A DNA stretch of 64,000 bases from Escherichia coli (lineage in GTDB: Bacteria > Pseudomonadota > Gammaproteobacteria > Enterobacterales > Enterobacteriaceae): NCBI RefSeq assembly GCF_022846255.1, contig NZ_AP025682.1, one strand, 5' to 3'. Position 1 is the stretch's first letter; the number at the start of each line of letters is the position of its first letter. Below are positions 4,264 to 50,244 of this stretch, one piece after another. The translations under genes and the position numbers were made by a program. The notes under the pieces were generated by a model. It saw nothing but the letters and a program-made list of their open reading frames with translations. It was not told the DNA's origin and made no database searches.

Positions 4264-5547
4264 TCAGCCGGGTTGACTTATCCGCGCCAATTGCTCGAAA
4301 TAGTCTGGAAAAGTTTTAGCGGTACATTTTGGATCAAGAATCGTCACAGCCGTATCTGATAATGCGACCAGCGAGAAACACATCGCCATCCGGTGATCAT
4401 TATAAGTGGCGATCTCAGCAAATTTCAGTTTTTCCGGTGGCGTAATGCGAATGAAATCATGCCCCTCTTCGACTTCCGCACCGACTTTACGCAGTTCTGT
4501 TGCCATCGCAAACAGGCGATCGGTCTCTTTAACACGCCAGTTATAGATATTGCGCAGCGTGGTGGTGCCTTTTGCAAATAACGCCGCGGTGGCAATGGTC
4601 ATCGCCGCATCGGGAATATGGTTCATATCCATATCAATGGCGTTCAGTTCACCACGCGTGCAGGAAATATAATCATCGCCCCAGCAAATGGTCGCGCCCA
4701 TTTTTTCCAGAACATCAGCAAAGCGAATATCACCCTGCATACTGTTGCGTCCAATGCCGGTCACTTTTACAGTGCCGCCTCTGATTGCTGCTGCTGCCAG
4801 GAAATAAGAAGCCGAAGATGCATCGCCTTCAACCAAATAAGTGCCCGGAGACTGGTAAGACTGCCCCCCTTTTACGACAAATTGTTGATAGTGCTGATTT
4901 TCAATTTCAACACCAAACGTCTTCATCAGATTGAGGGTGATATCGATATAAGGTTTAGAAACCAGATCGCCTTTAATACGAATCACCGTATCTTCCGGCG
5001 CAAGAGGCGCAGTCATTAACAGTGCGGTGAGGAACTGGCTGGAAACGGAGCCATCAACATCAACGTTGCCGCCAGTAAAGCCGCCCTGTAAACGCAATGG
5101 CGGATAATTTTCTTGTTCCAGGTAAGTGATCTTCGCCCCGCCCTGGCGCAGCGCATCCACCAGATGACCAATCGGGCGTTCTTTCATTCGCAGTTCACCG
5201 GTCAGTACAATATCATTGCTACCCAGGCAAAGTGCTGCCGCCAGCGGACGCATTGCCGTTCCGGCGTTACCGAGGAACAACTCCCGGGCACTTTCTGCGT
5301 GTAATGGACCACCGTTACCGATAATTTCGCAACGCGTACGATCGGCTGAAAGCGTATAGCTTACCCCTAACGCTGTTAATGCATTCAGCATATGGCGCAC
5401 GTCATCGCTATCCAGCAGATTGGTTAATACTGTTTTGCCGTGTGCTAATGCCGCCAGCAATAAAGCGCGGTTAGAAACGCTCTTGGAACCGGGCAGATTA
5501 ATAGTGCCATCGACACGAGCGATGGGTTGTAACGTTAGGGATTCCAT
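4264..5547 (-). CDS. aroA: 3-phosphoshikimate 1-carboxyvinyltransferase (EPSP synthase)
   Basis: 427-aa [38 protein letters not shown]... Confidence 0.96.
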
Positions 5548-6904: not shown

Positions 6905-7597
6905 TCAGGTCACCCGTTTAGCCCGACTTGCCTTCGTCCATTCTGGATTTGCACAGCGCGGACATAATTGTTTTTCCCCCGCGTTCATATGAATGATTTC
7001 ACTGCAACGGATGCAGGCATAGTCCGCCGACTCCGGCACCACTTTGTAACGCTGAGTACAGTCACTGGGTAAAATAAGTAATCCCGGTTTCACCTTGTCA
7101 TCTTCAAAGAAATAAACACTGATTTGCCCGTTGGTTTCAAGAATCGCCAGACGTACCTGTCCCAACTGCTCTACACCGCGCAATCGTAGCTCCATAAAGA
7201 ACTCAAATTCCGTCATGTTGGAGTTATTGAGTTTCGACCAGGCCAGCTCGCCATCTTCAATAATGACAACCGGCTTGCCTTCCAGAAGATCTTCCAGTTT
7301 TTCACTGTGCGCCATCAACCACATTACCAGGCGGTATAACAACGCCAGAGTAATAAAGACGATAAGTACCGGGACCATCGGCACATCATCATAAAACGCC
7401 ACATCTCCCGCCGCTGAACCCAGTGTCAGAATGATTAACACTTCAAACAGCGACATCTGCCGCACACCGCGTCTTCCGGTCATTTTGAGGAACAAAAAAA
7501 CCAGTACAAAGGTATAAAGACTACGTAGTGCAACTTCGCCAAGGAAATCAAAAGGCACTTTATCAAATGCCATACGGTGGAGATCGAACGCCTTCAT
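6905..7597 (-). CDS. ycaP: DUF421 inner-membrane protein YcaP
   Basis: 230-aa ORF with N-terminal hydrophobic segments, position between serC and ycaO. Confidence 0.8.
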   Translation of the reverse strand: MKAFDLHRMAFDKVPFDFLGEVALRSLYTFVLVFLFLKMTGRRGVRQMSLFEVLIILTLGSAAGDVAFYDDVPMVPVLIVFITLALLYRLVMWLMAHSEKLEDLLEGKPVVIIEDGELAWSKLNNSNMTEFEFFMELRLRGVEQLGQVRLAILETNGQISVYFFEDDKVKPGLLILPSDCTQRYKVVPESADYACIRCSEIIHMNAGEKQLCPRCANPEWTKASRAKRVT

Positions 7598-7726
7598 TTT
7601 TATGCTCTTATCGTGGTTTATCCGCTAAAAGCATAGCCAACAGTTCATCGGCATGGCGGCGGTGATAGCGCCTTTGAGATAAAACCCGTATTATTGCGCG
7701 CTTTCCGTACGACTAAAGTGATTTTC

Positions 7727-9487
7727 ATGACGCAAACATTTATCCCCGGCAAAGATGCCGCTCTGGAAGATTCCATCGCACGCTTCCAGCAAAAACTTTC
7801 AGACCTCGGTTTTCAGATTGAAGAGGCCTCCTGGCTGAATCCCGTGCCTAACGTCTGGTCTGTACATATTCGCGACAAAGAGTGCGCACTGTGTTTTACC
7901 AACGGTAAAGGCGCAACCAAAAAAGCGGCGCTAGCTTCTGCCCTCGGTGAATATTTCGAGCGTCTCTCAACCAACTACTTTTTTGCGGACTTCTGGCTGG
8001 GCGAAACCATCGCCAACGGCCCATTCGTGCATTATCCCAACGAAAAATGGTTCCCACTGACCGAAAATGACGATGTACCAGAAGGGCTGCTCGATGACCG
8101 TCTGCGCGCATTTTACGATCCGGAGAATGAACTGACCGGTAGTATGCTGATTGACCTGCAATCCGGTAACGAAGATCGTGGTATTTGCGGTCTACCGTTT
8201 ACGCGCCAGTCCGACAATCAGACCATTTATATTCCGATGAATATCATTGGTAACTTGTACGTTTCTAACGGTATGTCTGCTGGCAATACCCGTAACGAAG
8301 CACGCGTTCAGGGGTTGTCCGAAGTTTTCGAACGTTACGTGAAAAACCGCATTATTGCTGAAAGCATCAGCTTGCCGGAAATCCCGGCAGACGTGCTGGC
8401 ACGTTATCCAGCAGTAGTTGAAGCGATCGAAACGCTGGAAGCGGAAGGTTTCCCGATCTTCGCTTATGACGGTTCGCTTGGCGGCCAGTATCCGGTGATT
8501 TGCGTGGTACTGTTCAATCCTGCTAACGGTACCTGCTTTGCCTCATTCGGTGCGCATCCTGATTTTGGCGTTGCACTGGAACGTACCGTGACCGAGTTGC
8601 TGCAAGGTCGTGGCCTGAAAGATCTGGATGTGTTTACTCCACCAACCTTCGATGATGAAGAAGTCGCTGAACATACCAACCTCGAAACGCACTTTATCGA
8701 TTCCAGCGGTTTAATCTCCTGGGACCTGTTCAAGCAGGATGCCGATTATCCGTTTGTTGACTGGAGCTTCTCCGGCACCACGGAAGAAGAGTTCGCCACG
8801 CTGATGGCTATCTTCAAAAAGGAAGATAAAGAAGTTTATATTGCCGATTACGAGCATCTGGGTGTCTACGCTTGCCGTATTATCGTGCCTGGCATGTCCG
8901 ATATTTATCCGGCTGAAGATCTGTGGCTGGCGAATAACAGTATGGGCAGCCATTTACGTGAAACGATTCTTTCGCTACCAGGTAGCGAGTGGGAAAAGGA
9001 AGATTACCTGAACCTCATCGAGCAACTGGATGAAGAAGGTTTTGATGACTTTACCCGCGTGCGTGAACTGTTGGGTCTGGCGACCGGGTCGGATAACGGC
9101 TGGTACACTCTGCGTATCGGTGAATTAAAAGCCATGCTGGCGCTGGCTGGTGGCGATCTGGAACAGGCTCTGGTCTGGACCGAATGGACGATGGAGTTTA
9201 ACTCATCAGTATTCAGCCCGGAACGCGCCAATTATTATCGCTGCCTGCAAACGTTGTTATTACTGGCGCAGGAAGAAGATCGCCAGCCGCTGCAATATCT
9301 GAATGCGTTTGTTCGCATGTACGGCGCAGATGCCGTGGAAGCCGCCAGTGCGGCAATGAGCGGCGAAGCGGCATTTTATGGCTTGCAACCAGTAGATAGC
9401 GATCTGCACGCGTTTGCTGCACATCAGTCGTTGTTGAAGGCCTACGAAAAGCTGCAACGCGCCAAAGCAGCATTCTGGGCAAAATAA
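7727..9487 (+). CDS. ycaO: YcaO (ribosomal protein S12 methylthiotransferase accessory factor)
   Basis: ORF 7694..9487; start placed at MTQTFIPGKDAALEDS... (586 aa). Confidence 0.9.
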   Translation: MTQTFIPGKDAALEDSIARFQQKLSDLGFQIEEASWLNPVPNVWSVHIRDKECALCFTNGKGATKKAALASALGEYFERLSTNYFFADFWLGETIANGPFVHYPNEKWFPLTENDDVPEGLLDDRLRAFYDPENELTGSMLIDLQSGNEDRGICGLPFTRQSDNQTIYIPMNIIGNLYVSNGMSAGNTRNEARVQGLSEVFERYVKNRIIAESISLPEIPADVLARYPAVVEAIETLEAEGFPIFAYDGSLGGQYPVICVVLFNPANGTCFASFGAHPDFGVALERTVTELLQGRGLKDLDVFTPPTFDDEEVAEHTNLETHFIDSSGLISWDLFKQDADYPFVDWSFSGTTEEEFATLMAIFKKEDKEVYIADYEHLGVYACRIIVPGMSDIYPAEDLWLANNSMGSHLRETILSLPGSEWEKEDYLNLIEQLDEEGFDDFTRVRELLGLATGSDNGWYTLRIGELKAMLALAGGDLEQALVWTEWTMEFNSSVFSPERANYYRCLQTLLLLAQEEDRQPLQYLNAFVRMYGADAVEAASAAMSGEAAFYGLQPVDSDLHAFAAHQSLLKAYEKLQRAKAAFWAK

Positions 9488-35102: not shown

Positions 35103-36152
35103 TTTGAAAACTGCCTGTACGGCAGTGAACAGCGCCCGCTTTTTTACCGCGTCAGCGCAGCGTTTCTAAGCTGCCTGTACGGCAGTGAACTCCCTGATTC
35201 AGTTGCGCTCCCCGACGAGCTGTTTCTAAGCTGCCTGTACGGCAGTGAACCGTTGGCGTTTCGCGGCAACAGGTTTTTCAATTTTCTAAGCTGCCTGTAC
35301 GGCAGTGAACGTAGTTTTGATTCCAGCGATAACTGCCTATTTATTTCTAAGCTGCCTGTACGGCAGTGAACGTAGTTTTGATTCCAGCGATAACTGCCTA
35401 TTTATTTCTAAGCTGCCTGTACGGCAGTGAACGATCAGGCCCGGCTTTCCCCACACGTTCGTATTTTCTAAGCTGCCTGTACGGCAGTGAACCGCCTGCC
35501 ATTCAACCTGCAAATAGTTTTCGATTTCTAAGCTGCCTGTACGGCAGTGAACGAACTGTGGCACGAGGTTGCAGGCGTAAGACTTTTCTAAGCTGCCTGT
35601 ACGGCAGTGAACGCCATCTTTGAATATAACGCCCCGATTGTGATTTTCTAAGCTGCCTGTACGGCAGTGAACCCCTACCGTTTTAATAAATGGGATTTGC
35701 ATTATTTCTAAGCTGCCTGTACGGCAGTGAACGCTGAGGTGTTTACAATGCGTGCCGTGCTGGTTTTCTAAGCTGCCTGTACGGCAGTGAACTCTGTTTT
35801 TCGTCAGCAGGATTAAACCAGGCATTTCTAAGCTGCCTGTACGGCAGTGAACTCTCATCAATTACGGGTTCGTTGGCTGGATCTTTTCTAAGCTGCCTGT
35901 ATGGCAGTGAACGTCTTCTGCGCATCCGTACCACTCACCAATGATTTCTAAGCTGCCTGTATGGCAGTGAACTTAATCGGTAACGTTGCTCTAATTCCCC
36001 CTCTTTTCTAAGCTGCCTGTATGGCAGTGAACCCAGCGAGAATTGAGGCTGTTTGCCGTGTGCTTTTCTAAGCTGCCTGTATGGCAGTGAACATAAACGC
36101 GCGCAGGTTGTTGAGGTGCTCGAGTTTCTAAGCTGCCTGTATGGCAGTGAAC
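35103..36152 (-). CRISPR. Type I-F CRISPR array A: 18 repeats, 17 spacers (16 unique)
   Basis: 28-bp repeat (RNA sense on minus strand GTTCACTGCCGTACAGGCAGCTTAGAAA) at 60-61 bp period with 32-33 bp spacers; degenerate terminal repeat at 35103..35130; five repeats at 35885..36152 carry a loop variant. Confidence 0.97.
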
Positions 36153-36704: not shown

Positions 36705-37718
36705 CTAGTCGTAGGATACGGCAAATATGGCTTTGCTTTGGACTTCTCCAGGCTGTAGTGCTTCCTCCTTCACGCGGACATATTTCGCGGTAATCGGGAA
36801 GGTGTACTGATTCTCAATGGCCGCCATTTTAGTTAGTTTGTTCATCAGAGTATCACCCAGCTTTAACGGTGTTGTTGCGTTACCATTATAAATCTGGAAC
36901 CCAACCCCCTTAGCACCATTAAGCGATGTGTTTTTCAGAATGGTTCCACTATCATCCCATTCACCGCGCGCAACTTTAAAAGTCACTGGATTAGTCGTGA
37001 CGTTATAAACACTGTCACAATTTAAAACCAGATCTATAGAACCTGATTTCGTGTTATTGGCAGATTGCATCTCACTTACCGTTGTTTCTGGCATTCTTAT
37101 TTCGTAAATCGGTTGCGAAAAACTACAGGTTGTGGGTTTGTGTTTGATGCTAAATTCTATATTCTGAGTGTAAGAAACATCACTATTTAGTCGCCCAGTA
37201 ACCCAACATAAAAGCCATGATATGATATTATTATTGCAAGAGTTATCTGTTAGTATGCTAATAGCGGGGCGCGGGATGGTTATCTTGTCGATATTGGTGG
37301 TTATAGTATGGTCTACTTTACTCGTTGGCCCAACATATTCTGCCTTAAGAGTGAACGGTTTGGTATTTATCACATCCTGAGTGTTATATTCTTTTGGAGA
37401 AGCACCCAAGGAGTCAGTTCCAGTAGAAACAGGAAAACTACTACTCTCAAGGTTAAATTTCATAAAAATTGATTTCCCCGAATCCGACTCTCTAAGTTCA
37501 ACGATATAATCTTTTAACGGTGTTGCATAATACATTTTATCGCTTGCTGCATTACATGTGAACGTATCGACTAAGTTTGTATGAATTACAGCCGTTACCG
37601 TATCTTGTGCCATATCCAGTTCTATCGTTTGGCTTGCTGTTGTATTAGGCCCCAAGGTACATTTAGCCTGCCCCAAAAAAGGCAAAGCCAGTAAAAACAA
37701 AAACCAATATTTCTTCAT
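36705..37718 (-). CDS. Fimbrial adhesin / minor tip subunit (chaperone-usher pilus)
   Basis: ORF 36705..37739 (TTG-initiated in the track); likely ATG start at MKKYWFLFLLALPFLGQA signal peptide; last gene of the operon; AT-rich codon usage. Confidence 0.6.
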   Translation of the reverse strand: MKKYWFLFLLALPFLGQAKCTLGPNTTASQTIELDMAQDTVTAVIHTNLVDTFTCNAASDKMYYATPLKDYIVELRESDSGKSIFMKFNLESSSFPVSTGTDSLGASPKEYNTQDVINTKPFTLKAEYVGPTSKVDHTITTNIDKITIPRPAISILTDNSCNNNIISWLLCWVTGRLNSDVSYTQNIEFSIKHKPTTCSFSQPIYEIRMPETTVSEMQSANNTKSGSIDLVLNCDSVYNVTTNPVTFKVARGEWDDSGTILKNTSLNGAKGVGFQIYNGNATTPLKLGDTLMNKLTKMAAIENQYTFPITAKYVRVKEEALQPGEVQSKAIFAVSYD

Positions 37719-37729
37719 AAACAAATCCT

Positions 37730-40222
37730 TTAACGACAAATATAAACTTTATTCTCATCAATAACGTTATCAAAGGTAATAGTGCAGAATTGTTCCTGCT
37801 GTTTATTAACCGAGACGCGAATCGACGCGGGAACATCATTGGTGCGAATAAATATCCGACTTCCCTGTCCTACTAAGCCCACATTATTGCCACTTTCATC
37901 TTCAACCTCATAACCAAACGGCAACGGAGAGCCATCAGGTCGTTGGGAGATGAAATACCAGGGCTTGCGTTTATCAGTCTCAAACTGCGTCATCACTACC
38001 GCACCACGATAAGGAACGGTGTTTTTACGGTTACCCAGTAGCGCCACATCGCTTTTACTGTCGGCAATATCCAACATCAACGTATTTTCACGATACGGCG
38101 TCAGGTTGTCATAAATAGCGTAGCCTCTGCTATCCGTGGTCAAGTAACGATATCCCTGCACCGCAGCCCCCTCCAGCCCAGGTGCTTTGACAATGGCAAA
38201 CGTATCGGAAAGTCTGGGAGCCAGTGCCACCCCGTCCGACCACGCGACGAAACCGCCTTGAATATTACCGCTAACCTGTTGATATCTTTTCGACTGGCTA
38301 TAGCTGCCACCAATAGTCGCCAATGGCGCACGCCAGGTCAGGTTTCCACCTGCTGTTGTTTCGCTGCCCTGGTGTTGATGGCTCAAGTTTGCCCCGTAGC
38401 TGAACTGATCGCGGCTCCCCGCTACACCGCTGAGGCTGGTATTATTCGACCGATAGCCGTCTTTATCAAAAGTGGTCGAGTTAGAAACAAATAAATCTCG
38501 TCGTTTTTCAGTGATTCCATCGCCCCACGAGAAGGGAATTGAGAAATATAAGTTAATGCGTCTATCTTCGCGGTTATCTTCGTCGTAGGTCTGGCTAACA
38601 GACAAGGTATAACTAAGGCGTTCCCAGGAGTTCGAATAGCTGAGTTGATAATCTTTCCCTGTCCCGCTGCGTTCCCAATAATCCCGCCATTGACCGCTGA
38701 CCGACAGATATCCCCAATTTTCCGGTAATGACTGGTTTATATTTACAGAAAAGCTGTTCTTACGACCAAAATCGTACTGATAATAGTCGGCGATATCATA
38801 AACTGAGTCATCTTCTCGATTATAACTTTTCCTGTTATTTGCCCTCACGTGATCGTTAAAAGTACGATAATCTCGAGAAGAATAACGCCAGGCCGCCAGC
38901 GAAAATTGCGTTCCACTTTGAGAGAGATATTTGTTCCACGCAATCTGATAACTTTGACCATTAAACACATCACCGTTATCTTGTTCACTGTGGGAATGGG
39001 TAAAATCAACAGATACCGCACCAATCGGTGTATTCCATCCCGTGCCGAGAACAAACGATGAGTAATTATCAGACAACTGCGTGCCAGCATAGAGAGTCAG
39101 CAAATTATTAAGGCCATACTGATAGCTTCCCTGAATAAAATCTGACTGATCGCTGGCTCCCTCAATACGGCTACGTCCGACAGCAAATTCATATTTCGAA
39201 ACGCCCGGTTGCAACATATTTGGTACCGATGAATAAGGTACACGATAACGCGACACCGAACCGTCAGCTTCTTTAACGGTAACTTCCAGATCGGCACCAC
39301 CACCTGCAAGTTGCAAATCATCAATGGCGAATGGACCTGGCGGAACTTCTTTCTGGTAAACCACAAAGCCATTTTGTTCGATAGTGACAAGTGCGTTACT
39401 TTGGGCAACACCACGCACCACAGGCGTAAAATTCTGTTTAGAGTTCGGCAACATCTGCATATCGCGCCAAAGGCGTACACCGCGAAAACGCACGGAGTCA
39501 AAAACATCAGAACCGGTATACATTTCACCAGCACGCAATGTGCCAAGAATATGTGGAATTCCGCGCTCCAGATATAACGTGTTACTCTTCCATTTACCGC
39601 TGTTATCGTCACTTTTCGTATAATTGGCATTTGAATGCAACTGCCAGCCCAGCAGATTCAAACCACTATTCAGATTTAAATAGCTACTTTTATTATCTCC
39701 TCCGTGCTTATAATTACTGTAATACTGACTGGCATAATAAGAAGTATATAATGCGTTAATCCCACGATCCCATGCCTCAGGTGGAACATATCCGCGTTCA
39801 TACTCAACAACATAGGCCTGGGGTACACTCAACTTCAGGTTAAAATGCCCAATATCATAGTCAACGCTACCTCCCTGTACTGCATCCCGAAGAGGTACGC
39901 ATTCTACGCCTTTATCAATATTAATTCCTTCAGTGAGGATACCTATTTGCTTTAACTGCTCCCAAGATAAACATGTCGCATCCGGATCATCTTTAATGTC
40001 GACATTATAGTGTCCGCGCCACTGATTATTCAGGTAAACATCCATATCATAGATACCTGGCATCGGCTTATCACTATCAATATGATAGTCAGAAATTTTT
40101 TCCCCATTTAATCCGCCAATCATAAAATGGGTGTCAAATGTTTCATCTTCCGCCCATGCAAGCGACGTTGCCAACACCGACAGGATAGCCAGCGTAATAG
40201 AATTAAGTTTAGACATAATCAA
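37730..40222 (-). CDS. Fimbrial outer-membrane usher protein
   Basis: 830-aa ORF, size and composition typical of FimD/PapC ushers, between chaperone and adhesin. Confidence 0.85.
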   Translation of the reverse strand: MIMSKLNSITLAILSVLATSLAWAEDETFDTHFMIGGLNGEKISDYHIDSDKPMPGIYDMDVYLNNQWRGHYNVDIKDDPDATCLSWEQLKQIGILTEGINIDKGVECVPLRDAVQGGSVDYDIGHFNLKLSVPQAYVVEYERGYVPPEAWDRGINALYTSYYASQYYSNYKHGGDNKSSYLNLNSGLNLLGWQLHSNANYTKSDDNSGKWKSNTLYLERGIPHILGTLRAGEMYTGSDVFDSVRFRGVRLWRDMQMLPNSKQNFTPVVRGVAQSNALVTIEQNGFVVYQKEVPPGPFAIDDLQLAGGGADLEVTVKEADGSVSRYRVPYSSVPNMLQPGVSKYEFAVGRSRIEGASDQSDFIQGSYQYGLNNLLTLYAGTQLSDNYSSFVLGTGWNTPIGAVSVDFTHSHSEQDNGDVFNGQSYQIAWNKYLSQSGTQFSLAAWRYSSRDYRTFNDHVRANNRKSYNREDDSVYDIADYYQYDFGRKNSFSVNINQSLPENWGYLSVSGQWRDYWERSGTGKDYQLSYSNSWERLSYTLSVSQTYDEDNREDRRINLYFSIPFSWGDGITEKRRDLFVSNSTTFDKDGYRSNNTSLSGVAGSRDQFSYGANLSHQHQGSETTAGGNLTWRAPLATIGGSYSQSKRYQQVSGNIQGGFVAWSDGVALAPRLSDTFAIVKAPGLEGAAVQGYRYLTTDSRGYAIYDNLTPYRENTLMLDIADSKSDVALLGNRKNTVPYRGAVVMTQFETDKRKPWYFISQRPDGSPLPFGYEVEDESGNNVGLVGQGSRIFIRTNDVPASIRVSVNKQQEQFCTITFDNVIDENKVYICR

Positions 40223-40230
40223 TCCCTGAT

Positions 40231-40911
40231 CTATTTGACGGTTTTTACTTTTTCACTCAAATAGTTCCCATGGTCATCAATCAGCGTAATTGTATATTGA
40301 TTGATGGCTAAGGCTGTGGTGATAGTCTTATCTGACCAGGGGGCTAATAACAACGTTTCGTGATTTATTTTTCCACTTCCCATCAACTCAGGAATAGTTA
40401 TCCAGTTTGCGGAGTTGTTTTTGATATTAATACCACCATTGGCATGCTTAATGCTCAGACGACGAAAACTTTCTTTATCTACGCCAGTAAGTCCCTCTGG
40501 GCGGTAGATAAATTTAATACGATTCTGCATGGCGAATTTTATGCCATTCTTATCTTCTAATTCGGGGCAATTAGGTGGGATGTCTAGCACATTAAGGAAG
40601 AATAGGCTTTCGCGATCTTTTGGTAGTGTATTCGCCAATTTTTTGATTTTGAGTTGTTGCCCTTCCCCCCCTTTTACGTGAGCGACCGGTGGCGTCAACA
40701 CAAACGGAACATGAATTTTTTCTGGGGGTAGACTGGTATCGCCATCATCAATCCATGACTGAACCAGGGCGCTACGATTACCTTCATTCATTAACTGAAC
40801 GGTAATCTCTTTTTTCTTTTCTGGATAAATAACACGAGTGCCGTAGATATAGACACCACTCCACGCAGGCGTGACTATGCCGGCCAGCAAGAAGGCTATT
40901 AATTTTTTCAT
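40231..40911 (-). CDS. Periplasmic pilus chaperone (PapD/FimC-like)
   Basis: 226-aa ORF with signal peptide MKKLIAFLLAGIVTPAWSG and chaperone-like N-terminal region. Confidence 0.8.
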   Translation of the reverse strand: MKKLIAFLLAGIVTPAWSGVYIYGTRVIYPEKKKEITVQLMNEGNRSALVQSWIDDGDTSLPPEKIHVPFVLTPPVAHVKGGEGQQLKIKKLANTLPKDRESLFFLNVLDIPPNCPELEDKNGIKFAMQNRIKFIYRPEGLTGVDKESFRRLSIKHANGGINIKNNSANWITIPELMGSGKINHETLLLAPWSDKTITTALAINQYTITLIDDHGNYLSEKVKTVK

Positions 40912-40964
40912 TAAACAATCCTTGTTTGAGAAATCGGCGACCGAAGCCGCCGATAAACACGATA

Positions 40965-41513
40965 TTAATCTGTCACGACAGTCATTGTCAGAGCAGAGTT
41001 AACCGGGCCAGCAGTCACCGCATCACCTGATTGCGCGTATTTCGCACTGAAATTTAGTGTATATTCATTAGAGCTGTTTTTTTCTAACTCAATACTTTTA
41101 TCACCGTCAATCTGTTGAGATTGCCCATCTGCACTCTCATAGTAGACAGCAAAACCAGCACCATTTGGGTTTGCCACAGTATTAATGGTGATATCGCTAC
41201 GATTTGCATCAAACTGACTTCTGGAAAACGTAATTCTGGGAGTCTCATCTCCTGTACATTTGACCGTCAGCGGTACAGTTGTTTTATTTGAATAACCATC
41301 ATAAATATAACCAGCGCTCTTACCATCAAATTGATCAGCACCAATATCGTTCATAGCAATAGTAGCCTGGCTATTTCCGATAAATTGACAAGTAGTTCCA
41401 ACCACATTACCGGTAATAACTAACTCACCCTGTTCACTCCCCTCCTCTGCAAAAGCCCCTGCACTCATAAAAAGAGAAGATAATACTGCAACTGCAATAA
41501 TTGAACGTTTCAT
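40965..41513 (-). CDS. Major fimbrial subunit
   Basis: 182-aa ORF with signal peptide and Thr/Ser/Gly-rich pilin-like composition; first gene of the operon, preceded by about 380 bp of AT-rich DNA. Confidence 0.75.
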   Translation of the reverse strand: MKRSIIAVAVLSSLFMSAGAFAEEGSEQGELVITGNVVGTTCQFIGNSQATIAMNDIGADQFDGKSAGYIYDGYSNKTTVPLTVKCTGDETPRITFSRSQFDANRSDITINTVANPNGAGFAVYYESADGQSQQIDGDKSIELEKNSSNEYTLNFSAKYAQSGDAVTAGPVNSALTMTVVTD

Positions 41514-41892: not shown

Positions 41893-42447
41893 TCAAAACC
41901 AGGGAATAGTGGCGGTTGCGCTTAATCCGTAACTACTAAATTCCCCTTTAACCGGTTCAGTAAGCAAATCACCATGACGGATAAACAGCTTGAACTGCTG
42001 CTGACTCGACAAACTATTCATATTAAGAAAGGGTAAATCGGTCCGCTGTTCAGCCTGCGTCGCCAGTCGCTCAATCGCCTGTTCTTCAGTTAGCCAGCCT
42101 TTTTTCACTGAACGCCTTAACAGACGCTGAGGGTTACTTTTTACCTGTACACGACTTACGACTCGCCAGCCTTTAATTTCAGGTACTAGCGTGACAGGCG
42201 AACATTGGCAGTAATCAGTAAGCCCTTTACGCCACGTAGAGGCTTCAAGTTCTTGCAATGCGGGGGCACTGCCGTGCAAGCGTAAACGCGCTCCCGGCGT
42301 AACATTCACGTCCGGGAAACTCACGCCGATATCACCTTGCCCTCTTGCACCTAATGCCCGATGCAATTTGGCAAATAACGCCGCCATCAACATTTCGCTC
42401 GAAAATTCAGGATCTGGCAGAACGCGGATCTCAAGGTAGTGATCCAT
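41893..42447 (-). CDS. cas6f: Type I-F CRISPR endoribonuclease Cas6f (Csy4)
   Basis: ORF 41893..42489; start placed at MDHYLEIRVLPDPEF; last gene of cas operon. Confidence 0.9.
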   Translation of the reverse strand: MDHYLEIRVLPDPEFSSEMLMAALFAKLHRALGARGQGDIGVSFPDVNVTPGARLRLHGSAPALQELEASTWRKGLTDYCQCSPVTLVPEIKGWRVVSRVQVKSNPQRLLRRSVKKGWLTEEQAIERLATQAEQRTDLPFLNMNSLSSQQQFKLFIRHGDLLTEPVKGEFSSYGLSATATIPWF

Positions 42448-42457
42448 TGGCAGCTCC

Positions 42458-43459
42458 TTATTCCGATTTCTCACCAAAGACACCGCCACGGATCAGCACA
42501 GCCATCACGTAGCGCTGCTGATCAACGTCTGGTTTCATCCCTTTAGTCACCCAATTGTCCAGTAAGGTATAAAAGTCGAGTTTTTCTTTCGGTTGACGGC
42601 AGGCCACACCGCGACTGGTTACAGAACCGTAAGGTTCCACGGCTATAGCCCCCAATTCATCAACCTTTGGATGCCAGGTATCAATGGTACGTAAAGCATT
42701 GCCAATCTTCTGAGAGTGAATACCGGCAATGCCAGCCACCTGGTATAACACGCGACTTTTACTACTGTTGCTGTCGAGTACCAGCTCCTGCGACGGAAAA
42801 ACTTCTTGCCCGGCACCAAGACGAACCTGCGCTTCAACGGTAAGCATCACCCACTCTTTTGCGCTTAATCCTTGCTCTATAATGGCCGCCAGCTGCGTGA
42901 CCGCTGCCTGTCCCTGGTCAAATTGACGTAAAGAGAAGTCATGGCTGTTAAAAGTCCAGGAAGTGTCGTTAGCAGTAACTTTCACCTGGATCTGCTCAGC
43001 ACCAATGCGGTTGCGCCACAGAAAACGACCATTTGCCAGATTCAGCGCATAGCGAAGCGCCAGCTCTTTAAAGCCATGTTCGCTGATGTAACCTTCAATG
43101 ACCCCGGAAAGCGCCTCCTGGTAAGCCATATCATTACATACTGACGGTGTGGATAAATTACCCAGCACACGCAGCGTAAACACCACCTTTAACGTATCCG
43201 CATCTACCGGAAGCGAAGCCACATCCACCCGTTGCAGGTTAGCTTTTTGGATTTCAGCATCCAGTTTTGTGGAGTCACTGGTAATCGTATTTTTCAAGCG
43301 ATTAGAGATAGTTCCGCGAACCGCTTTCTCCTGAATCTCAATGGGTTGCCATACATTTCCTTGCCAGTTACCTGCGTACATTACCGCGTCAGATGTTGCC
43401 AGTTTGCGCTCAAATGCCAGTACCGATGCCGTTTTTATTACTACAGGAGCCTTTGCCAT
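42458..43459 (-). CDS. cas7f: Type I-F Cascade backbone subunit Cas7f (Csy3)
   Basis: 333-aa [36 protein letters not shown]..., position in operon. Confidence 0.9.
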
Positions 43460-43469
43460 AATTATGTCC

Positions 43470-44393
43470 TTATTCTAAATCGTCATATTCATTAAAAGTA
43501 AAATCATCACCAGCTGGCATTGCCGAGCAATAGTAGCCAGTGTCCGTTGTGCGGTAACGCCACATCAGCGGTTGCAAGTCAGTTATGCGATGTAATCCGC
43601 GCCATTCGCCGATGCCATATACCGCTTCGGCAAAAGCAAATGGCGTCACGGTGTCGCGCGCATTTTCAACTTCACCGGGTGCGTAAACAGGAGAAATGCG
43701 TTGGTAGCCACACATTAACGGTACCAGGAAACCAGGCATTGGCTTCGGCTGATATGTCCATTTTGCGCTGTTGTCTTCTGCCGGAGATTCGGCCTGATAT
43801 TTAACGGCAGCAAAATCAAGCCAGGCATCCAGCAATGAGATGTCGGGATGTTGTTGGTGATGTTCAGCCAGCCATTCACTGCGATCGTAAAGCGCATAGC
43901 CAGGCATTAAACGCCAGATGATTTTACGCAGTTGCTTTTCATCTTCAGGCGCATGAAAAAGCTGTGGTTCGCGCATGTCAACAATGCTGCCGCCCGCCAG
44001 TTTGTGGCTCTGGCAGAGCATTTTCAGATGGTCACACAGAGCTTTTCTGCCATATTCACCATTGGTGATTTCCCCTTCACATTCAATGAGCAAAGATACC
44101 GTCAGATGCATACGGCCCTCTTCATTGAACGAAGCGGTTTTACCTTCTCTGGTTAGTGGGTTACGGGTGAGAGCAAACTGAAAATACCGCCCAGAGCTAT
44201 ATGCCTGAATATGTTGTTCATGGCTAACTACCGCGCAACCGTCAAAACTTACGCCAAAATCATCCGCCACTTTGCGAGAAAGCGCATGAACATAGCCGAG
44301 AAAATGGGTCATCGCCGGGAATCCCCAGGTCAACCCGGAGACGGCGTTAGCGTTTTCGATACGTATATGGGGTAACAAGAGCAGATAACTCAT
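43470..44393 (-). CDS. cas5f: Type I-F Cascade subunit Cas5f (Csy2)
   Basis: 307-aa ORF, operon position between csy1 and csy3, overlaps csy1 stop by 4 bp. Confidence 0.88.
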
Positions 44394-45697
44394 TTCAGCG
44401 CCTCCTGCAAAACAGCTTCCATTTCACGCATCCGTTGAGCGAACAGAGACTGGCTGCGCCATTCTCTTTGCTCGACAGCGCCCACGTCGAAACTGGATTT
44501 TTTCAGGCGATAGTTGAGCCAGCGCGCAAAATCATCGGCCACCGCCCCCTGCCAGTCGTTTTTCTCCCGCTCCAGTTTGAAAACCTCATCGGACAGGCTT
44601 CGCCACGGATCCAGCCAAAGCTGCTGATGGCGAGGTAAATCTTGCGATTGCGCTGACCATCCCTGCCATTTTTCTTGCTGAAAAGCGGATGCCTGCATGA
44701 ACAGCAGATCGATCAACTCATCAATATATTTCGCCCGCGCAGTTCGGATATGAACATTATTTATGTCAACCTTCAACAGGTAAGTCATCCGGGCGATAAT
44801 GCCCGAAGCCGCCCTATTGAAATCGCCGCGTAAGGCAAAAATACTGAGCATGTTTTGTGGTGCGCGATCCAGCGTCGCCCAGGTAGGCGGCATTGACGGC
44901 AACAGCCAGACGCGCCCCCCACGCACACTATTGAGCAATGAAATATTTTGCGGTTTTGTGCCTCCGAAATGCATTTCAGCAAGATTCGGGAAACGAATAT
45001 CTGGCTGTGAGTGCCATTTACCTGCTTTGTGCGCTTCGCGAATGGCTTTCGATTCCTCACTAAAGCGCACGGCGGTTAGCTTTTCATACATCGCCTGCGC
45101 CAGTGAACTGGAAAACAGTGGGCATAAGAGGTGATAACCATCCGCAACAGGGAAATAGATTTGTTTTGCCAGTTTATGGCTGGCAGGCCGTCCAGTTGTC
45201 CATGCCTGGCTAAACCCAGCTACCCACTGCTCCAGTTGCGCTTTATCCTCTGCAAACGTACTTAATGCCTGATAATCACCACGCTTCAGGCTGGCAAGCA
45301 GTGAATCTCCGTTCACATCAGTTTGTAGCAACTTTGCGACGTCAAGTGCAGCGGCGTTACCAATCGCGTCAGTAGCGACATTCGCCAACGATGCCGTGTT
45401 TAAATAGCTTTCGTTAGCGGAGGTTTCCAGATAAAAGCTACTGGCTTTAGAATCACCATGACTGAATTTAGCGCCATGAGTGACTAATTTGATTTGCCCG
45501 GCACGCTTTGCCGCATCCGTTAACCAGTGACGAGGCAGGTAGCGTGCCTCGAGTTCCTGCCGCTCCTGAGCGATGACGCTGGCATCCTCGCCCTGTTCCA
45601 GTCGCTTTGTTGCTTCTTTTTCAAAGGCCTCGACTTTGGGTTGCCTTCGCGAAGCGATATAGTCAGTGATAAATTGTATTAGCGCCGTTTTTTCCAT
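44390..45697 (-). CDS. cas8f: Type I-F Cascade large subunit Cas8f (Csy1)
   Basis: 435-aa ORF, AAGGAG RBS upstream of ATG, first gene of csy cluster. Confidence 0.88.
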   Translation of the reverse strand: MEKTALIQFITDYIASRRQPKVEAFEKEATKRLEQGEDASVIAQERQELEARYLPRHWLTDAAKRAGQIKLVTHGAKFSHGDSKASSFYLETSANESYLNTASLANVATDAIGNAAALDVAKLLQTDVNGDSLLASLKRGDYQALSTFAEDKAQLEQWVAGFSQAWTTGRPASHKLAKQIYFPVADGYHLLCPLFSSSLAQAMYEKLTAVRFSEESKAIREAHKAGKWHSQPDIRFPNLAEMHFGGTKPQNISLLNSVRGGRVWLLPSMPPTWATLDRAPQNMLSIFALRGDFNRAASGIIARMTYLLKVDINNVHIRTARAKYIDELIDLLFMQASAFQQEKWQGWSAQSQDLPRHQQLWLDPWRSLSDEVFKLEREKNDWQGAVADDFARWLNYRLKKSSFDVGAVEQREWRSQSLFAQRMREMEAVLQEALK

Positions 45698-45743
45698 CTC
45701 GGCTCCTTTCGTTAATCCATCAAATTGAAGTTGCTCCCTGACT

Positions 45744-45827
45744 TCACTGAAAAATCTCCGTAGCCCAACCAGGCTTCAGTACAACGACGCATACAGCAAA
45801 AGGGACAACACCCGTGGTGATAATCAT
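45744..45827 (-). CDS. Hypothetical 27-aa hydrophobic mini-ORF (MIITTGVVPFAVCVVVLKPGWATEIFQ); candidate Cre-repressed toxin or upstream leader peptide
   Basis: ATG preceded by AGGTGAG at 6-nt spacing; not in ORF track (too short); lies between the Cre-like target site and csy1. Confidence 0.2.
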   Translation of the reverse strand: MIITTGVVPFAVCVVVLKPGWATEIFQ

Positions 45828-45837
45828 GGATAGCTCA

Positions 45838-45871
45838 CCTAGAGGTATCTACGTTTTAATCTAGTAAAATC
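45838..45871 (+). promoter_or_regulatory. Putative Cascade binding site (CC PAM + 11-nt seed match to the psi-spacer), overlapping a putative minus-strand promoter and RBS
   Basis: cc-tagaggtatct at 45838..45850 is identical to the first 11 nt of the psi-spacer at 45969..45979; I-F PAM is 5'-CC on the non-target strand. Confidence 0.45.
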
Positions 45872-45940
45872 CATGCAATAACCAATAGTGATATTACCAT
45901 GCATGAAATATTTGCCACACAATGATTTAAAAACTAACAT

Positions 45941-46014
45941 TCACGCACTGCCGTTGGCAGCTTAGAAATAGAGGTATCTCCGGATACGGACTTGTAAACT
46001 GCCGTACAGGCAGC
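45941..46014 (+). ncRNA. Degenerate mini-CRISPR (psiR-psiS-psiR), CreA/CreR-like crRNA-resembling RNA gene
   Basis: psiR1 tcacgcactgccgttggcagcttagaaa (intact 8-nt 5' handle, shortened loop); 25-nt psi-spacer; psiR2 gtaaactgccgtacaggcagc (intact Cas6f hairpin, lacks 3' handle); orientation opposite to cas genes; possible promoter TTGCCA-17-TAACAT at 45912..45940. Confidence 0.5.
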
Positions 46015-46024
46015 CCGCGCCCCT

Positions 46025-49000
46025 TCACGGGGCGCGGTACACACCTAACCAGGGGTGATAACGCCAGTCATCGACCACATCTTCTTCACTGACGGGTACT
46101 CTCACCTCAGCAAACTTTTCCCCAACGCTTGCTATCTCACAACCTTGCTTATCAGCTAAATTCAACAAAACGTGTTGGTAATCCATCACGCCCCAGCAAG
46201 CGACACCGCTGGCGCATCTCACCTCTTCTCGCCTGAAATTCCCTTGCGCTTTACGCTCGTTGTCGCCCGTACGGGAATAGAAACGCGCTTCGCTTTCTTC
46301 ATCATCCATATGCAGAAAAAATACCGCCTCCGGCAAAGGGGAATAACGAAATGGCGTCTGGCGCTGTATCCAGCCGTTCCAGCTTAGCGGTGCACGCCAC
46401 CATTGCGCCGCCACCACATGTTTGCTTTTACTGCTCATCAATTCGGCGGATAAACGACTATGTTCTAGCTCCGCCAGTTTGTTGGCATTATTGGCAGACA
46501 GGATCCGCGGCAAGGCGTTAATCGTCCGGTAGTCCGCGATCGGAATCAGTTCGCAAATATCGTGGCTATTCAGCAAGTGTTCTTTTGTTTCGAAACCAGG
46601 CTTACAAAATGCGGGGGCTTTTTTCTGCAATGATTTGATATTGCTACGCAAAATAACCAGATTCTCACTGGTCGGCACATTTCTACGGTGGCGCTGAATA
46701 CGTCCGGCAAATTGAATTATCGAACGCATGGAGCTTGGTTCGATAATTCCCCAATCCGCATCCCAGTCACGCCCCACTTCTATAACCGATGTCCCCAACA
46801 CCACAAACAGATGGTGCGATTCCGGACGGTTATGTAAGGCATCTGCGATATCTTCGTTGTTCCAGAAATCGAGTTCGTTATGACGGGTAAAAGCGCGGTC
46901 CAGTCGCTTCTCAATATCTGAACGCACCGCCAGCGGGTGTCGGGAGTGGTAAACACAATAATGAATACAAACATTTTCTGGTGAAGGAATGGCAATCAGG
47001 GCTTTGGTCACTGCAACCAGTGGATTGATATTCGCGAAGCGCACCAGGCCCAGCGAAACGGTTTTACCGCTTTCGTGTAGCTGGCGATGCGCCTGATGCA
47101 ACTTCAGCATTTGCGTATGCACCGTCTGGGCCACACTTTCGGTAACATCCTGGATTGCAACTGATGCAGATGAAATCGAAGCAACACGCCCGAAATGCAG
47201 CCGCTCTTTTTCAGCCAGCATTACCGCCCGCCTGGCAACAAATTTTGTATGCGCATCGCGAAAGGCCGCTCCATCGCTAATTTGCGTGGCATCAGCATCG
47301 TTTTCGTCAAACCAGGCACAGCAAATATTGACGGGCCTGCCGTTGGTACCACAAGACGCCTGCCACATTTTACGCCCGGCAAGATAAGCCGCGAACAGCG
47401 CCTGAATCAGGCCTGGCGGAAGCGTCGCCGAAGAGAGTAACACCCGCGTTCCCAGCATCCCGGCCCAGTTCATCAAACGACATACCGCATGAAGATCAGC
47501 AATATCAAAGTCGTCGGGTTCGTCGAGCACTAAATCGCTGGTTAACAGACGCAACATCGCCGGAAGCTGTTTCCCGCCACGCACACCCTCGGTCGCGGAA
47601 ATAAGATGATCAATTGTCGCGACCAGAATCGGCGCGCTCACTAACGCCTTAAGTTTGCTGTCATCCTTCAACCATTTTTCCAGCGCCCCGGTATGCAGGC
47701 TGCCTTCGTACTTAACGAACTGTTGCTCCTCTGCCGGCGACTCTTGCGAGGCACTTCCACAATCATTGTCTATTTTTTCCTGCTGCCAGAGCTGTTTAAC
47801 TGCCGCCGAACCAATTAATACCGCCAGCTCATCCTCACCGAGTCCAAGTCGACTACGCAGAGCATCGCCGGTTTGCAAAGTCAGCGTACGCAATCCCAGC
47901 GCGACGGTAAAACGGCACCCTTCCCGCTCATCGGCAAGCGCATACATAATGCGGGCGTTCGCAAAGGTTTTACCGCACCCCGTCGAGGCCATATTAACGC
48001 CGAAAAATCCCTCCTCCCGGCTTCGTTCACGTAACGCTCGCGCCACATCCGAGGCTTTATCCTGCCAGCGATATTTCGCATCTGTAGCTCGCTGGCTAAA
48101 ACCTTTATGTCGGGCAATTGCCGGAAGAGAAGCCCGTGTGCGCATCAGCTGCCGCCCAAGCAAAAACGCATGATGTGCGACGCCGACCAGGTGCTCGTCC
48201 ACCCGTTGTTTGAGTGCGCCACTTTGCCTATCGCTATTTGCCCAGACGATATAATCCGGCTCCTGCCATTTTTGCTGCGCATCGCTTGAGGAATAGTAAT
48301 GATCGGCAAGCATCAGGCAAAAACGCGCCATATGTGAGGGGAACAACTGTTCCATCAGCCCGTATGTCTTTAAACCGAGCGCGTTACTTGCCCGGCGGGA
48401 AATCTGATGTGCTTTTTCTCGCCAGCTAGCACTCTGAAGCGGTGTTCCAGCCGGAAATTGCCAGACGTGCGCAAAATCCTGTTGTAACCAGTCATCTCTG
48501 CGGTGGTTAACGGCATTCCAGTCAGCATTAAGTTGCCTTTCCAGCCAACTTTCACACCCTTTGCAAGATTGTTCCGGTTGTGGCGAAAGATTCTCCGGAA
48601 TTCGATGATGGGAAAGGATCAGCCAACCTACCGTTTTGGCTAGCGGTTGCAGCGAAGTAAATGGGCTATCTGAAAATTGAGGCGTGTCTTTTAGCAGGCG
48701 TTCCAGAATCGCAGATTCATCATCTGCCGTAAGTTCGCCAAGCTTCGCCAGCCACACATCGTCGGGCCGATCACCGACAAACGCCTGAAAGAGCCGCAGT
48801 GAGATCCATTCATGTCGGTATGGTTGATAACTGCGGGCATTCTTTTGGGTCAGGCTTTGCTGAAAGCTGCGTCCGGATTTTCCAAAATCATGAAATAACC
48901 CGGCGATGGCTGCCAGCAGCGCAATGCTTTCCGCACATTGCCAGCGGTTTTCTTCCTTGTTCACCAGGCTGGTTTGCGTTGTGCGATTTGTGGGAACGCG

Positions 49001-49258
49001 CCCCTGAGCATTAAAACGACGAATATTACCCACAATCCACATCAACTCAATTTGTCCATTCTTCTTTAGCCAGTGACATGCCACTGCGGTATTTCGCCTG
49101 GCAGTTTTGCGCAGTAAACGGCGGAGTGTATTAACGCCTTCCAGAGTAATCACTGTTTGCCATGCGGCATCACCTGTACGTTCAGCAAACTGATCAATAA
49201 TACGGCAGCTTTCCACGCGGGCGTTTTTTGTACAGCGCGAGATAATCAGAACATTCAT
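46025..49258 (-). CDS. cas3: Type I-F Cas2-Cas3 fusion (Cas2 domain + HD nuclease + SF2 helicase)
   Basis: 1077-aa ORF; N-terminal Cas2-like region; HD motif LLAAIAGLFHDFGK; overlaps cas1 stop by 4 bp. Confidence 0.92.
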   Translation of the reverse strand: MNVLIISRCTKNARVESCRIIDQFAERTGDAAWQTVITLEGVNTLRRLLRKTARRNTAVACHWLKKNGQIELMWIVGNIRRFNAQGRVPTNRTTQTSLVNKEENRWQCAESIALLAAIAGLFHDFGKSGRSFQQSLTQKNARSYQPYRHEWISLRLFQAFVGDRPDDVWLAKLGELTADDESAILERLLKDTPQFSDSPFTSLQPLAKTVGWLILSHHRIPENLSPQPEQSCKGCESWLERQLNADWNAVNHRRDDWLQQDFAHVWQFPAGTPLQSASWREKAHQISRRASNALGLKTYGLMEQLFPSHMARFCLMLADHYYSSSDAQQKWQEPDYIVWANSDRQSGALKQRVDEHLVGVAHHAFLLGRQLMRTRASLPAIARHKGFSQRATDAKYRWQDKASDVARALRERSREEGFFGVNMASTGCGKTFANARIMYALADEREGCRFTVALGLRTLTLQTGDALRSRLGLGEDELAVLIGSAAVKQLWQQEKIDNDCGSASQESPAEEQQFVKYEGSLHTGALEKWLKDDSKLKALVSAPILVATIDHLISATEGVRGGKQLPAMLRLLTSDLVLDEPDDFDIADLHAVCRLMNWAGMLGTRVLLSSATLPPGLIQALFAAYLAGRKMWQASCGTNGRPVNICCAWFDENDADATQISDGAAFRDAHTKFVARRAVMLAEKERLHFGRVASISSASVAIQDVTESVAQTVHTQMLKLHQAHRQLHESGKTVSLGLVRFANINPLVAVTKALIAIPSPENVCIHYCVYHSRHPLAVRSDIEKRLDRAFTRHNELDFWNNEDIADALHNRPESHHLFVVLGTSVIEVGRDWDADWGIIEPSSMRSIIQFAGRIQRHRRNVPTSENLVILRSNIKSLQKKAPAFCKPGFETKEHLLNSHDICELIPIADYRTINALPRILSANNANKLAELEHSRLSAELMSSKSKHVVAAQWWRAPLSWNGWIQRQTPFRYSPLPEAVFFLHMDDEESEARFYSRTGDNERKAQGNFRREEVRCASGVACWGVMDYQHVLLNLADKQGCEIASVGEKFAEVRVPVSEEDVVDDWRYHPWLGVYRAP

Positions 49259-50244
49259 TGATCAGCCTTAGCCAGTGCCTGGGCAGTTTCCTGCAAAGAG
49301 GTGATCATGACATCCAGCGCATCCGTTTGTTGAAAGATATTGATGCAGCGTAGACGAAACTCCTGGGCATCTTCACCTGCCATCGCGGCGATAAATGCTT
49401 GCGGCATCACAAGGGCATCTTTAATCAGATCGGCAAGGTCAAAAACCAGCCCGCCGCGACGTGTTTTACCGTGCATTACTGCTAAACCGTGCGGGATCCC
49501 GGTTACCCACGCCGCCACTGCTGCCAGTCCATAAGCCAGATAATTCCCTTGATCGAGGAAGCGGTTGGCCATATCAATACCACCGCCCCGTTTTGCGCGA
49601 GTGAAATCGCCATACCCCACTGTTTGACTGACCATTTTGTATAACGCTTTAGTCAATTTGGCCTCTACGAGCATAAGCTGCGTATGGTTTTCTGCCGCGT
49701 CTATTTCTTCACGAGTACGATTCAGGAGGGTATGCAGCGCATTAACATCAGGTTGAAATGCGTGTTCACGCTGCATTTTCGAGCTGGACCAGTGCTTATC
49801 GATATGTGTCAGGCGGATTAACTGAAAACGTTTCGCGGCGGCAAGTCGTTTATCTTCAGCAAACCAAAAAGAAACCCACTGCTGGAGATACTCTGTAGGG
49901 CGATATTCACTTTGTGGGCTGAGCCAGGAGACATCAACATCCACTTCATTTGCCGAATACAGCGGCGTGCCATCCGTACCACAAAAGCCCACCATCACCC
50001 CGGCATGAGCAAATTCACGCATCGCCGCCTGAGTAACGGAAGTTCCCATTCCCAACATCAATGCCGTGGTATTCGCAATGGGGATATTCCAGTAGTACGA
50101 CTCTTTACCTTCGCTGGTGACATACTCCACCCGCCCACCATTCACCTGTACCCGGCATTTTTCCAGATAATAAATATTGGCGCGTTTGGAGTGGAGAATG
50201 GTTTTGAGATCGGAAGGCGTGAGGTAATTCGAAGACATAAACAC
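49255..50244 (-). CDS. cas1: Type I-F CRISPR integrase Cas1
   Basis: 329-aa ORF upstream of cas2-3, first gene of cas operon. Confidence 0.9.
   Translation of the reverse strand: MFMSSNYLTPSDLKTILHSKRANIYYLEKCRVQVNGGRVEYVTSEGKESYYWNIPIANTTALMLGMGTSVTQAAMREFAHAGVMVGFCGTDGTPLYSANEVDVDVSWLSPQSEYRPTEYLQQWVSFWFAEDKRLAAAKRFQLIRLTHIDKHWSSSKMQREHAFQPDVNALHTLLNRTREEIDAAENHTQLMLVEAKLTKALYKMVSQTVGYGDFTRAKRGGGIDMANRFLDQGNYLAYGLAAVAAWVTGIPHGLAVMHGKTRRGGLVFDLADLIKDALVMPQAFIAAMAGEDAQEFRLRCINIFQQTDALDVMITSLQETAQALAKADQ

Follow-up and report, generated by a model that had tools for sequence, protein, structure and literature searches.

This work concerns the 327-bp gap between cas2/3 and csy1 in a CRISPR-Cas system of type I-F (short palindromic repeats, clustered and regularly interspaced, and their associated proteins), carried in a 64-kb stretch of contig NZ_AP025682.1 (64,000 nucleotides, hereafter the window). 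The source of the window is Escherichia coli, its clpA being 99.2% identical to E. coli clpA. The gap holds repeat-like sequences on the plus strand, and an initial annotation had proposed that they encode a guide of the CreA/CreR type, directed to a nearby seed-matching site flanked by a protospacer adjacent motif (PAM). Here we describe this element, which we call the mini-CRISPR, and its homologues, and argue that it probably serves the Csy complex in restraining its own synthesis. The type I-F system is complete in the window, on the minus strand, according to NCBIfam equivalog matches:

49255-50244, minus strand: cas1, which forms with cas2/3 the upstream transcription unit (46025..50244)
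46025-49258, minus strand: cas2/3 (Cas3f)
44390-45697, minus strand: csy1
43470-44393, minus strand: csy2
42458-43459, minus strand: csy3
41893-42489, minus strand: cas6f
41893..45697, minus strand: csy1-csy2-csy3-cas6f operon, presumably the regulated genes and the source of the effector

The minus strand also carries two true CRISPR arrays, whose repeats (GTTCACTGCCGTACAGGCAGCTTAGAAA) are 28 nt and whose spacers are 32-33 nt long (30 true spacers).

The gap is present in 238 of the 5,426 complete E. coli genomes, and a scan of GTDB with Csy1, which returned four Escherichia loci, Pseudocitrobacter and distant I-F loci, found it also in E. whittamii and Escherichia sp. E1V33. A metagenome scan for the leader that precedes csy1 yielded four contigs, with one new variant. 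The comparison below comprises 13 homologous loci with 9 distinct guide/target pairs, from E. coli, E. whittamii, Escherichia sp. E1V33 and metagenomes. The related I-F system of Pseudocitrobacter faecalis is without any cas2/3-csy1 gap, and the module seems confined to Escherichia. No record inspected carries a RefSeq annotation within the gap.

The mini-CRISPR is a degenerate two-repeat element (45941-46014) on the plus strand, opposite to cas2/3. Its parts and immediate flanks are:

45912..45940, plus strand: promoter-like site TTGCCA-17-TAACAT, with a predicted start just 5' of the psiR1 hairpin
45941..45968, plus strand: psiR1, degenerate repeat 1, with the hairpin CTGCC-GTT-GGCAG, its loop shortened, followed by the canonical 5' handle CTTAGAAA
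45969..45993, plus strand: psiS, the guide, 25 nt, TAGAGGTATCTCCGGATACGGACTT
45994..46014, plus strand: psiR2, degenerate repeat 2, GTAAA plus the canonical Cas6f hairpin CTGCCGTACAGGCAG
46015..46037, strand unspecified: GC-rich 9-bp hairpin (CCGCGCCCC/GGGGCGCGG) overlapping the cas2/3 stop codon, with the stop in the loop

The 8-nt 5' handle is retained in psiR1, whose hairpin and handle are kept in all variants, with variation in the loop and the 5' flank; psiR2 has lost the 3' handle part of the repeat and is invariant in all variants. Rfam returned over the region only two matches, both sub-threshold and on the plus strand, to CRISPR-DR4, the I-F repeat model, one over psiR1 (45946-45968) and one over psiR2. 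A canonical CRISPR array was considered and rejected: psiR2 keeps 19 of the 28 repeat positions, the psiR1 loop is shortened and the spacer measures 25 nt, as against 32-33 nt in the true arrays; no extra repeat-spacer units were found in any homologue compared. The promoter-like site is the sole sigma-70-like site called in the region by a consensus scan, its -10 being invariant and its -35 TTGNNA-like in all variants. The GC-rich hairpin is common to the window and E. coli T309.Ta3, with unrelated sequence at this place in the other homologues compared; it is a possible candidate for the end of the mini-CRISPR transcript, and was not called by a terminator scan. Within the guide, positions 6-19 (45974-45987) form an inverted repeat, GTATC-TCCG-GATAC.

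The site matched by this guide lies in the same gap, on the side of csy1:

45838..45839, plus strand: CC, the type I-F PAM on the spacer-matching strand, invariant in 13 of 13 homologous loci
45840..45864, plus strand: protospacer-like target, matching the guide at positions 1-11 and 13-14 (45840-45853), with the PAM-distal 11 nt unmatched

The plus strand at 45838-45850 reads, as first described, CC-TAGAGGTATCT, that is, the PAM followed by the same bases as the first 11 positions of the spacer-like sequence beginning at 45969. Taken further, 45838-45853 reads CC-TAGAGGTATCTACG and 45969-45982 reads TAGAGGTATCTCCG, both on the plus strand; position 12 is a mismatch, positions 13 and 14 match, and identity then ends, also in agreement with the earlier reading, except for a lone match at position 17. 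Since position 12 is unpaired in type I-F complexes, the effective match is 13/13 pairing positions up to position 14. CC is also the I-F PAM at published CreA targets. The original estimate that such a match would arise by chance with a probability of about 1e-5 is fair: by analytic calculation an exact 13-mer is expected 1e-5 times in a 330-bp intergenic region and 0.002 times in the 64-kb window. The pattern CC+TAGAGNTATCT, with position 6 left free, occurs a single time in the window, both strands included, even when one mismatch is allowed, against an expected count of 0.10 for the PAM plus seed pattern with one mismatch. One point had to be corrected. The target had been drawn to 45871, but the spacer-like sequence is 25 nt long (45969-45993) and not 32, and therefore the protospacer is 45840-45864.

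In all 9 distinct pairs the CC PAM is kept, as are positions 1-4, 7-11 and 13. L001-type E. coli has T at position 5 of both guide and target where all others have G in both, a double change (G:G to T:T) which would preserve pairing and which we read as covariation. At position 6 the target has G, A or T and the guide G or A, in any combination; at position 12 the target has A, G or T and the guide an invariant C; in most variants guide and target differ at these two positions. From position 14 onward the target drifts. The constancy of the pairing positions is not a mere lack of divergence, because the stretch between mini-CRISPR and target is only 68-95% identical among loci. The distance from guide to target is constant, at 129-130 nt, in every homologue. 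According to the papers on I-F mini-arrays, every sixth base of the guide is flipped out in type I-F complexes, so that variation at positions 6 and 12 is the footprint to be expected of Csy-guide pairing, and we interpret the conservation pattern as the evolutionary trace of such pairing. The anatomy of the element, the match, its conservation and its covariation are established here. As a separate observation, guide positions 12-25 (45980-45993) are invariant in 13 of 13 loci though unpaired with the local target.

The csy genes lie on the opposite, minus strand. In E. coli LF82, whose gap is identical to that of UTI89, no product was obtained by reverse transcription polymerase chain reaction across cas2/3-csy1, csy1 is expressed and interference is active (Almendros et al. 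2012, PMC3506596); cas2/3 and csy1 are therefore not co-transcribed and a csy promoter must lie inside the gap. The features on this strand are:

45891..45899, minus strand: extended -10-like TGnTAATAT, 53 nt upstream of the PAM, a candidate alternative csy-strand promoter
45858..45863, minus strand: -10-like hexamer TAGATT in the PAM-distal protospacer, with TAnnnT at the same PAM distance in all variants
45834..45840, minus strand: Shine-Dalgarno (SD)-like AGGTGAG, overlapping the PAM complement
45744..45827, minus strand: 27-codon mini-ORF (small open reading frame), MIITTGVVPFAVCVVVLKPGWATEIFQ, following AGGTGAG, downstream of the target and divergent from the mini-CRISPR
45698..45743, minus strand: conserved leader between mini-ORF and csy1, including the csy1 ribosome-binding site

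A minus-strand promoter composed of TTGGTT (45885..45880) and TAGATT (45863..45858) had been postulated. Both hexamers are found there, but together they score 7/12 and were not called by the consensus scan, making this a plausible but weak assignment, with a weak -35; the AGGTGAG ribosome-binding site had been placed correctly (45840..45834). In other variants the hexamer inside the protospacer reads TAAATT or TAATAT. TGnTAATAT is a conserved block in a divergent stretch, its hexamer being TAATAT or TAGTAT, with the TG of the extended -10 present in non-B2 variants. On the csy strand, no promoter-like sites were found more than about 20 nt downstream of the target PAM. The guide pairs with the non-template strand relative to transcription in the csy direction. 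In Pseudomonas aeruginosa, repression exceeds 90% from CreA targets some 30 bp upstream of the -35, and in Acinetobacter sp. WCHA45 the target is downstream of the start, which together indicate that position relative to the start is not critical.

The mini-ORF begins with 17 strongly hydrophobic residues (mean Kyte-Doolittle hydropathy 2.56). Its SD, ATG and frame are intact in six variants, the divergent ones carrying purine-rich SD equivalents (AGGATGA, AGGAGAG). By hand count, codon positions 1:2:3 account for the variable columns as 5:1:8; six of the changes are synonymous and six are replacements, mostly conservative. The pattern is suggestive of a coding role but not significant. In B2-type E. 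coli (about 200 of the 238 genomes) the ATG is lost and a 1-nt insertion produces a +1 frameshift. A second small ORF (26 aa, MRRCTEAWLGYGDFSVKSGSNFNLMD; window 45712-45792, minus strand) runs in another frame over the 3' half of the mini-ORF and ends 14 nt before the csy1 ATG, and the B2 frameshift fuses the mini-ORF N-terminus to its frame. Peptide-level conservation of the 3' half of the mini-ORF was therefore dropped as a candidate feature, the B2 lineage being frameshifted there and the second frame open. No match to the mini-ORF peptide was found in NCBIfam, in PADLOC or, by tblastn, in a plasmid collection.

In the leader that follows, homologues are 96-98% identical, as against 73-94% at the 5' end of csy1. 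A structured leader RNA finds no support in folding energies, the minimum free energy being no better than that of shuffled sequences (z = 0.13); an alifold consensus was obtained, with too little variation to bear on structure. The csy1 divergence is an observation in its own right: the first 600 nt of csy1 (window 45098-45697) are 73-74% identical to two E. coli variants, beside a flanking leader of 93-99% and a cas2/3 end of 90-95% identity, which suggests either module exchange or diversifying selection on the Csy1 N-terminus.

The anatomy, the conservation of PAM and seed, and the covariation at position 5 support the original proposal of a CreA/CreR-type guide that binds a PAM-flanked seed site, and the most likely regulated product is the csy operon, with the mini-ORF, or both, as alternatives. 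We think it likely that the guide, in complex with the Csy proteins, autorepresses the csy operon. Processing, binding, lack of cleavage, promoter position and repression we infer as follows. From the promoter at 45912-45940, transcription of the mini-CRISPR would run along the plus strand, away from csy1 and in antisense to the end of cas2/3. Cas6f would cut both repeat hairpins to release a 53-nt RNA composed of an 8-nt CUUAGAAA handle, the 25-nt guide and a 20-nt hairpin handle, which would load into a Csy complex one Csy3 subunit short. This complex is proposed to recognise the CC PAM at 45838 and to pair only at guide positions 1-5, 7-11 and 13-14; since the R-loop could not be completed, Cas2/3 would not be recruited and the chromosome would remain uncut. 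Placed on or just downstream of the only promoter-like elements for the leader, the mini-ORF and csy1-cas6f, the bound complex would lower their transcription, and because the repressor is made from the operon's own products the result would be a negative feedback loop. Such a loop would hold Csy in check, and expression would be released when CRISPR RNAs (crRNAs) titrate the Csy complex or anti-CRISPRs block it.

Several observations weigh against autorepression. Pairing extends over 11-13 bp, below the characterised I-F cases (17/20 in WCHA45, 18/19 in Acinetobacter baylyi ADP1), and repression by so short a pairing may be weak. The candidate csy-strand promoters are weak consensus matches, none of them called by a standard scan. 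In LF82 csy1 is expressed and interference is efficient despite the element, so that any repression there would be partial. Finally, csy2 has a nonsense codon in about 40% of E. coli I-F loci sampled at even spacing, and in those genomes the circuit is therefore dead.

These natural csy mutants also bear on the likeliest alternative, namely that the gap is an addiction module of the CreTA type. The guide would then be the antitoxin CreA, and the SD with its mini-ORF a toxin, peptide or RNA, repressed by Csy, which would act, by killing or arrest, on cells deprived of Csy function or struck by anti-CRISPRs. We regard this as unlikely. The layout is that of known I-F modules (mini-CRISPR in the cas3-csy1 gap, CC-flanked target, divergent SD and mini-ORF); SD and ATG persist in six variants despite divergence, with the codon-position split given above, and the N-terminal hydrophobicity is in line with a toxic peptide. 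The B2 lineage, without the ATG and frameshifted, is also where a csy2 nonsense codon and insertion sequences are seen. In UTI89, csy2 (7066-7989 of its stretch) has a premature stop, Q72* (CAG to TAG), and 24 of 60 rows spaced evenly over the 240 E. coli matches, among them the type strain ATCC 11775 and NC_007946, are 100% identical to UTI89 over the gap and csy operon; a large B2 clade, including the species type strain, is thus probably without a working Csy complex. In the B2-type E. coli TUM13066, IS100 is inserted inside the csy operon. The csy genes of ATG-type loci are intact in the three genomes inspected, and the sole csy deletion seen outside B2 took the whole intergenic region too: in E. 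coli SZQ1 (887-3965 of its stretch) a truncated cas3f is fused to csy3, and the gap, csy1 and csy2 are gone.

Other facts tell against such a toxin. The csy2-null UTI89-type genomes are common and viable, with the reservation that their mini-ORF is altered. More directly, in metagenome contig SKEE01000949.1 (L032) csy2 (4526-5449) carries E152* (GAA to TAA) next to an intact mini-CRISPR, target and ATG mini-ORF. Over 4,132 nt this single metagenome contig differs from an intact E. coli locus in that codon alone, which may be either a genuine null allele or an error of assembly. In the first case a lethal guarded toxin becomes unlikely; in the second, the remaining pattern mildly favours a toxin. 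Overall, csy2 nonsense mutants which retain the module argue against a lethal guarded toxin. Furthermore, the mini-ORF is without consecutive rare or proline codons, the leader lacks the stable hairpin of known CreT RNAs, the peptide matches nothing in the collections searched, and the persistence of the ORF is weak evidence since the second overlapping frame is also open.

Enterobacteria possess small hydrophobic type I toxins of 19-35 aa, such as Ibs, TisB, ShoB and Ldr. The mini-ORF product resembles them in size and in its single very hydrophobic stretch, but it shares no sequence similarity with them, has no NCBIfam match and has no antisense RNA partner, and its toxicity is partly contradicted by the natural csy2-null loci. 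It is conceivable, though we consider it quite improbable, that the locus represents a new class of CRISPR-guarded toxin, in which a hydrophobic 27-residue membrane peptide resembling type I toxins, encoded in the conserved leader, would be silenced in transcription by Csy and guide, and its loss in B2 would have freed csy2 to decay in UTI89-like strains.

It is very unlikely that the guide is functional but has its main target elsewhere in the genome, or a role other than in transcription (as a crRNA-competing decoy or a trigger of priming), the local match being secondary. The search for other sites covered the 64-kb window, and the invariance of guide positions 12-25 would suit another target; yet that window holds no PAM plus seed match besides the local site, which keeps its fixed distance and covaries with the guide. 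As to mimics of the guide in phages or plasmids, the 12 IMG/VR matches to handle plus seed were judged to be chance occurrences, because all lack the repeat hairpin and fall in AT-rich coding sequence; BLAST of the mini-CRISPR against a phage collection and of the whole gap against a plasmid collection found nothing. That the repeats are a relic, a decayed array fragment whose 14-nt repeat arose by duplication or gene conversion with no guide/target relation, is equally hard to credit: degenerate repeats are common near cas genes and identity is gone after 14 nt, but exactly the parts of a mature guide are kept (handle, two hairpins, promoter) as loops and flanks drift, changes fall in step with the 6-nt periodicity of pairing, position 5 having changed once on both sides, and gene conversion does not explain the pattern because it would have homogenised positions 6 and 12, where guide and target differ in most variants.

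Elsewhere in the window, the first array carries a G-to-A change in the hairpin stem of five successive repeats (window 35892-36147; CTGCCATACAGGCAG) and ends in a degenerate repeat at 35110. Between cas6f and the tRNA-Ser/CRISPR array sits a fimbrial operon of the YehD chaperone-usher type with four genes (subunit, chaperone, usher and adhesin-like gene; window 36705-41513, minus strand), whereas in UTI89 and LF82 tRNA-Ser directly follows cas6f.

The I-F system of E. coli (LF82, UTI89, ECOR strains) is usually described as constitutive, and the element, present in 238 complete genomes and unannotated in the records inspected, suggests that it is limited by its own effector through a crRNA-like guide. 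Such a loop would act as a sensor, csy expression rising when anti-CRISPRs or the crRNA load titrate the complex. Independently, the natural variants offer an in vivo footprint of the rules by which I-F guides pair (PAM, a seed of 5+5+1, every sixth position free) and a set of ready-made compensatory mutants, and this covariation series, together with the E. coli setting, makes the locus convenient experimentally.

By its anatomy we assign the E. coli element to the CreR/CreA-type I-F mini-arrays, a kind already published, whose anatomical traits it all displays. No earlier description of the E. coli element was found in the literature searched, the supplements of two survey papers lying outside that search. 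For I-F systems of P. aeruginosa and Acinetobacter, where CreTA and CrePA modules in the same slot have been characterised, experiments have demonstrated that this architecture represses without cleavage, and bacterial I-F CreA/CreR guides are reported to measure 23-27 nt, a range that includes the 25 nt of psiS. From the published I-F examples it differs in sharing no sequence with them, in a pairing of 11-13 bp, in a longer hydrophobic ORF and in its apparent confinement to Escherichia. The arrangement of a mini-array with a CC-flanked target recurs: an unrelated I-F locus of Desulfamplus magnetovallimortis has its own mini-array in the cas3-csy1 gap (2223-2388 of its stretch), the second repeat of which shares the GTAAAC start, and its 20-nt guide matches 18/20 to a CC-flanked site about 105 nt away.

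The closest relatives in layout are the I-F mini-arrays described in 2023 (bioRxiv 10.1101/2023.03.03.530964) and later named CreTA1 and CreTA2 (Wang et al. 2026, bioRxiv 10.64898/2026.06.02.729485). These also occupy the cas2/3-csy1 gap in the orientation opposite to cas3, and keep the repeat 1 handle and both hairpins; their guides are short (20 or 26 nt) and pair with the PAM-proximal part of a target that has a CC PAM, with mismatches at positions 6 and 12. For one of them repression has been demonstrated to depend on Cascade and not on Cas3. There is no sequence homology between them and the E. coli element, whose pairing, as predicted from its sequence, is shorter (11-13 bp), and their mini-ORF is of 15 nt, with two proline codons and a GC hairpin, whereas that of E. 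coli has 27 codons, is hydrophobic and has no such hairpin. In the CreTA of Acinetobacter sp. WCHA45 (Wang et al. 2023, Nat Commun, PMC10097628) a mini-CRISPR likewise lies in the cas3-csy1 gap, with a divergent SD, a conserved mini-ORF and a CC-flanked target downstream of the toxin promoter. Its guide, however, pairs at 17/20 positions and requires PAM-distal pairs, and its toxin is an RNA with a 33-bp ORF and the AUG in a hairpin stem, while natural csy2-null loci of E. coli keep the module. The CrePA of A. baylyi ADP1 (Shu et al., bioRxiv 10.1101/2024.01.05.574328; Nat Chem Biol 2025) uses the same genomic slot and a CC PAM; its guide, of about 30 nt, is mismatched at position 12, and its target is followed downstream by a protein-coding gene, which encodes a 103-aa KilAC-domain toxin, in contrast to the 27 codons, of no detectable family, found in E. 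coli.

In function, the proposed E. coli loop comes closest to the CreR RNAs which Liu et al. (bioRxiv 10.1101/2023.03.10.532045) described for systems of type I-E (Salmonella enterica), I-B and V-A, and which mediate Cas autorepression and sense crRNA load and anti-CRISPRs. The two differ in subtype, PAM and repeat family, I-F examples being only listed there. They share a degenerate mini-CRISPR and no proven toxin; the CreR target adjoins the promoter of the effector operon, that of E. coli candidate promoters of it, and CreR is the functional model which we adopt for the E. coli element.

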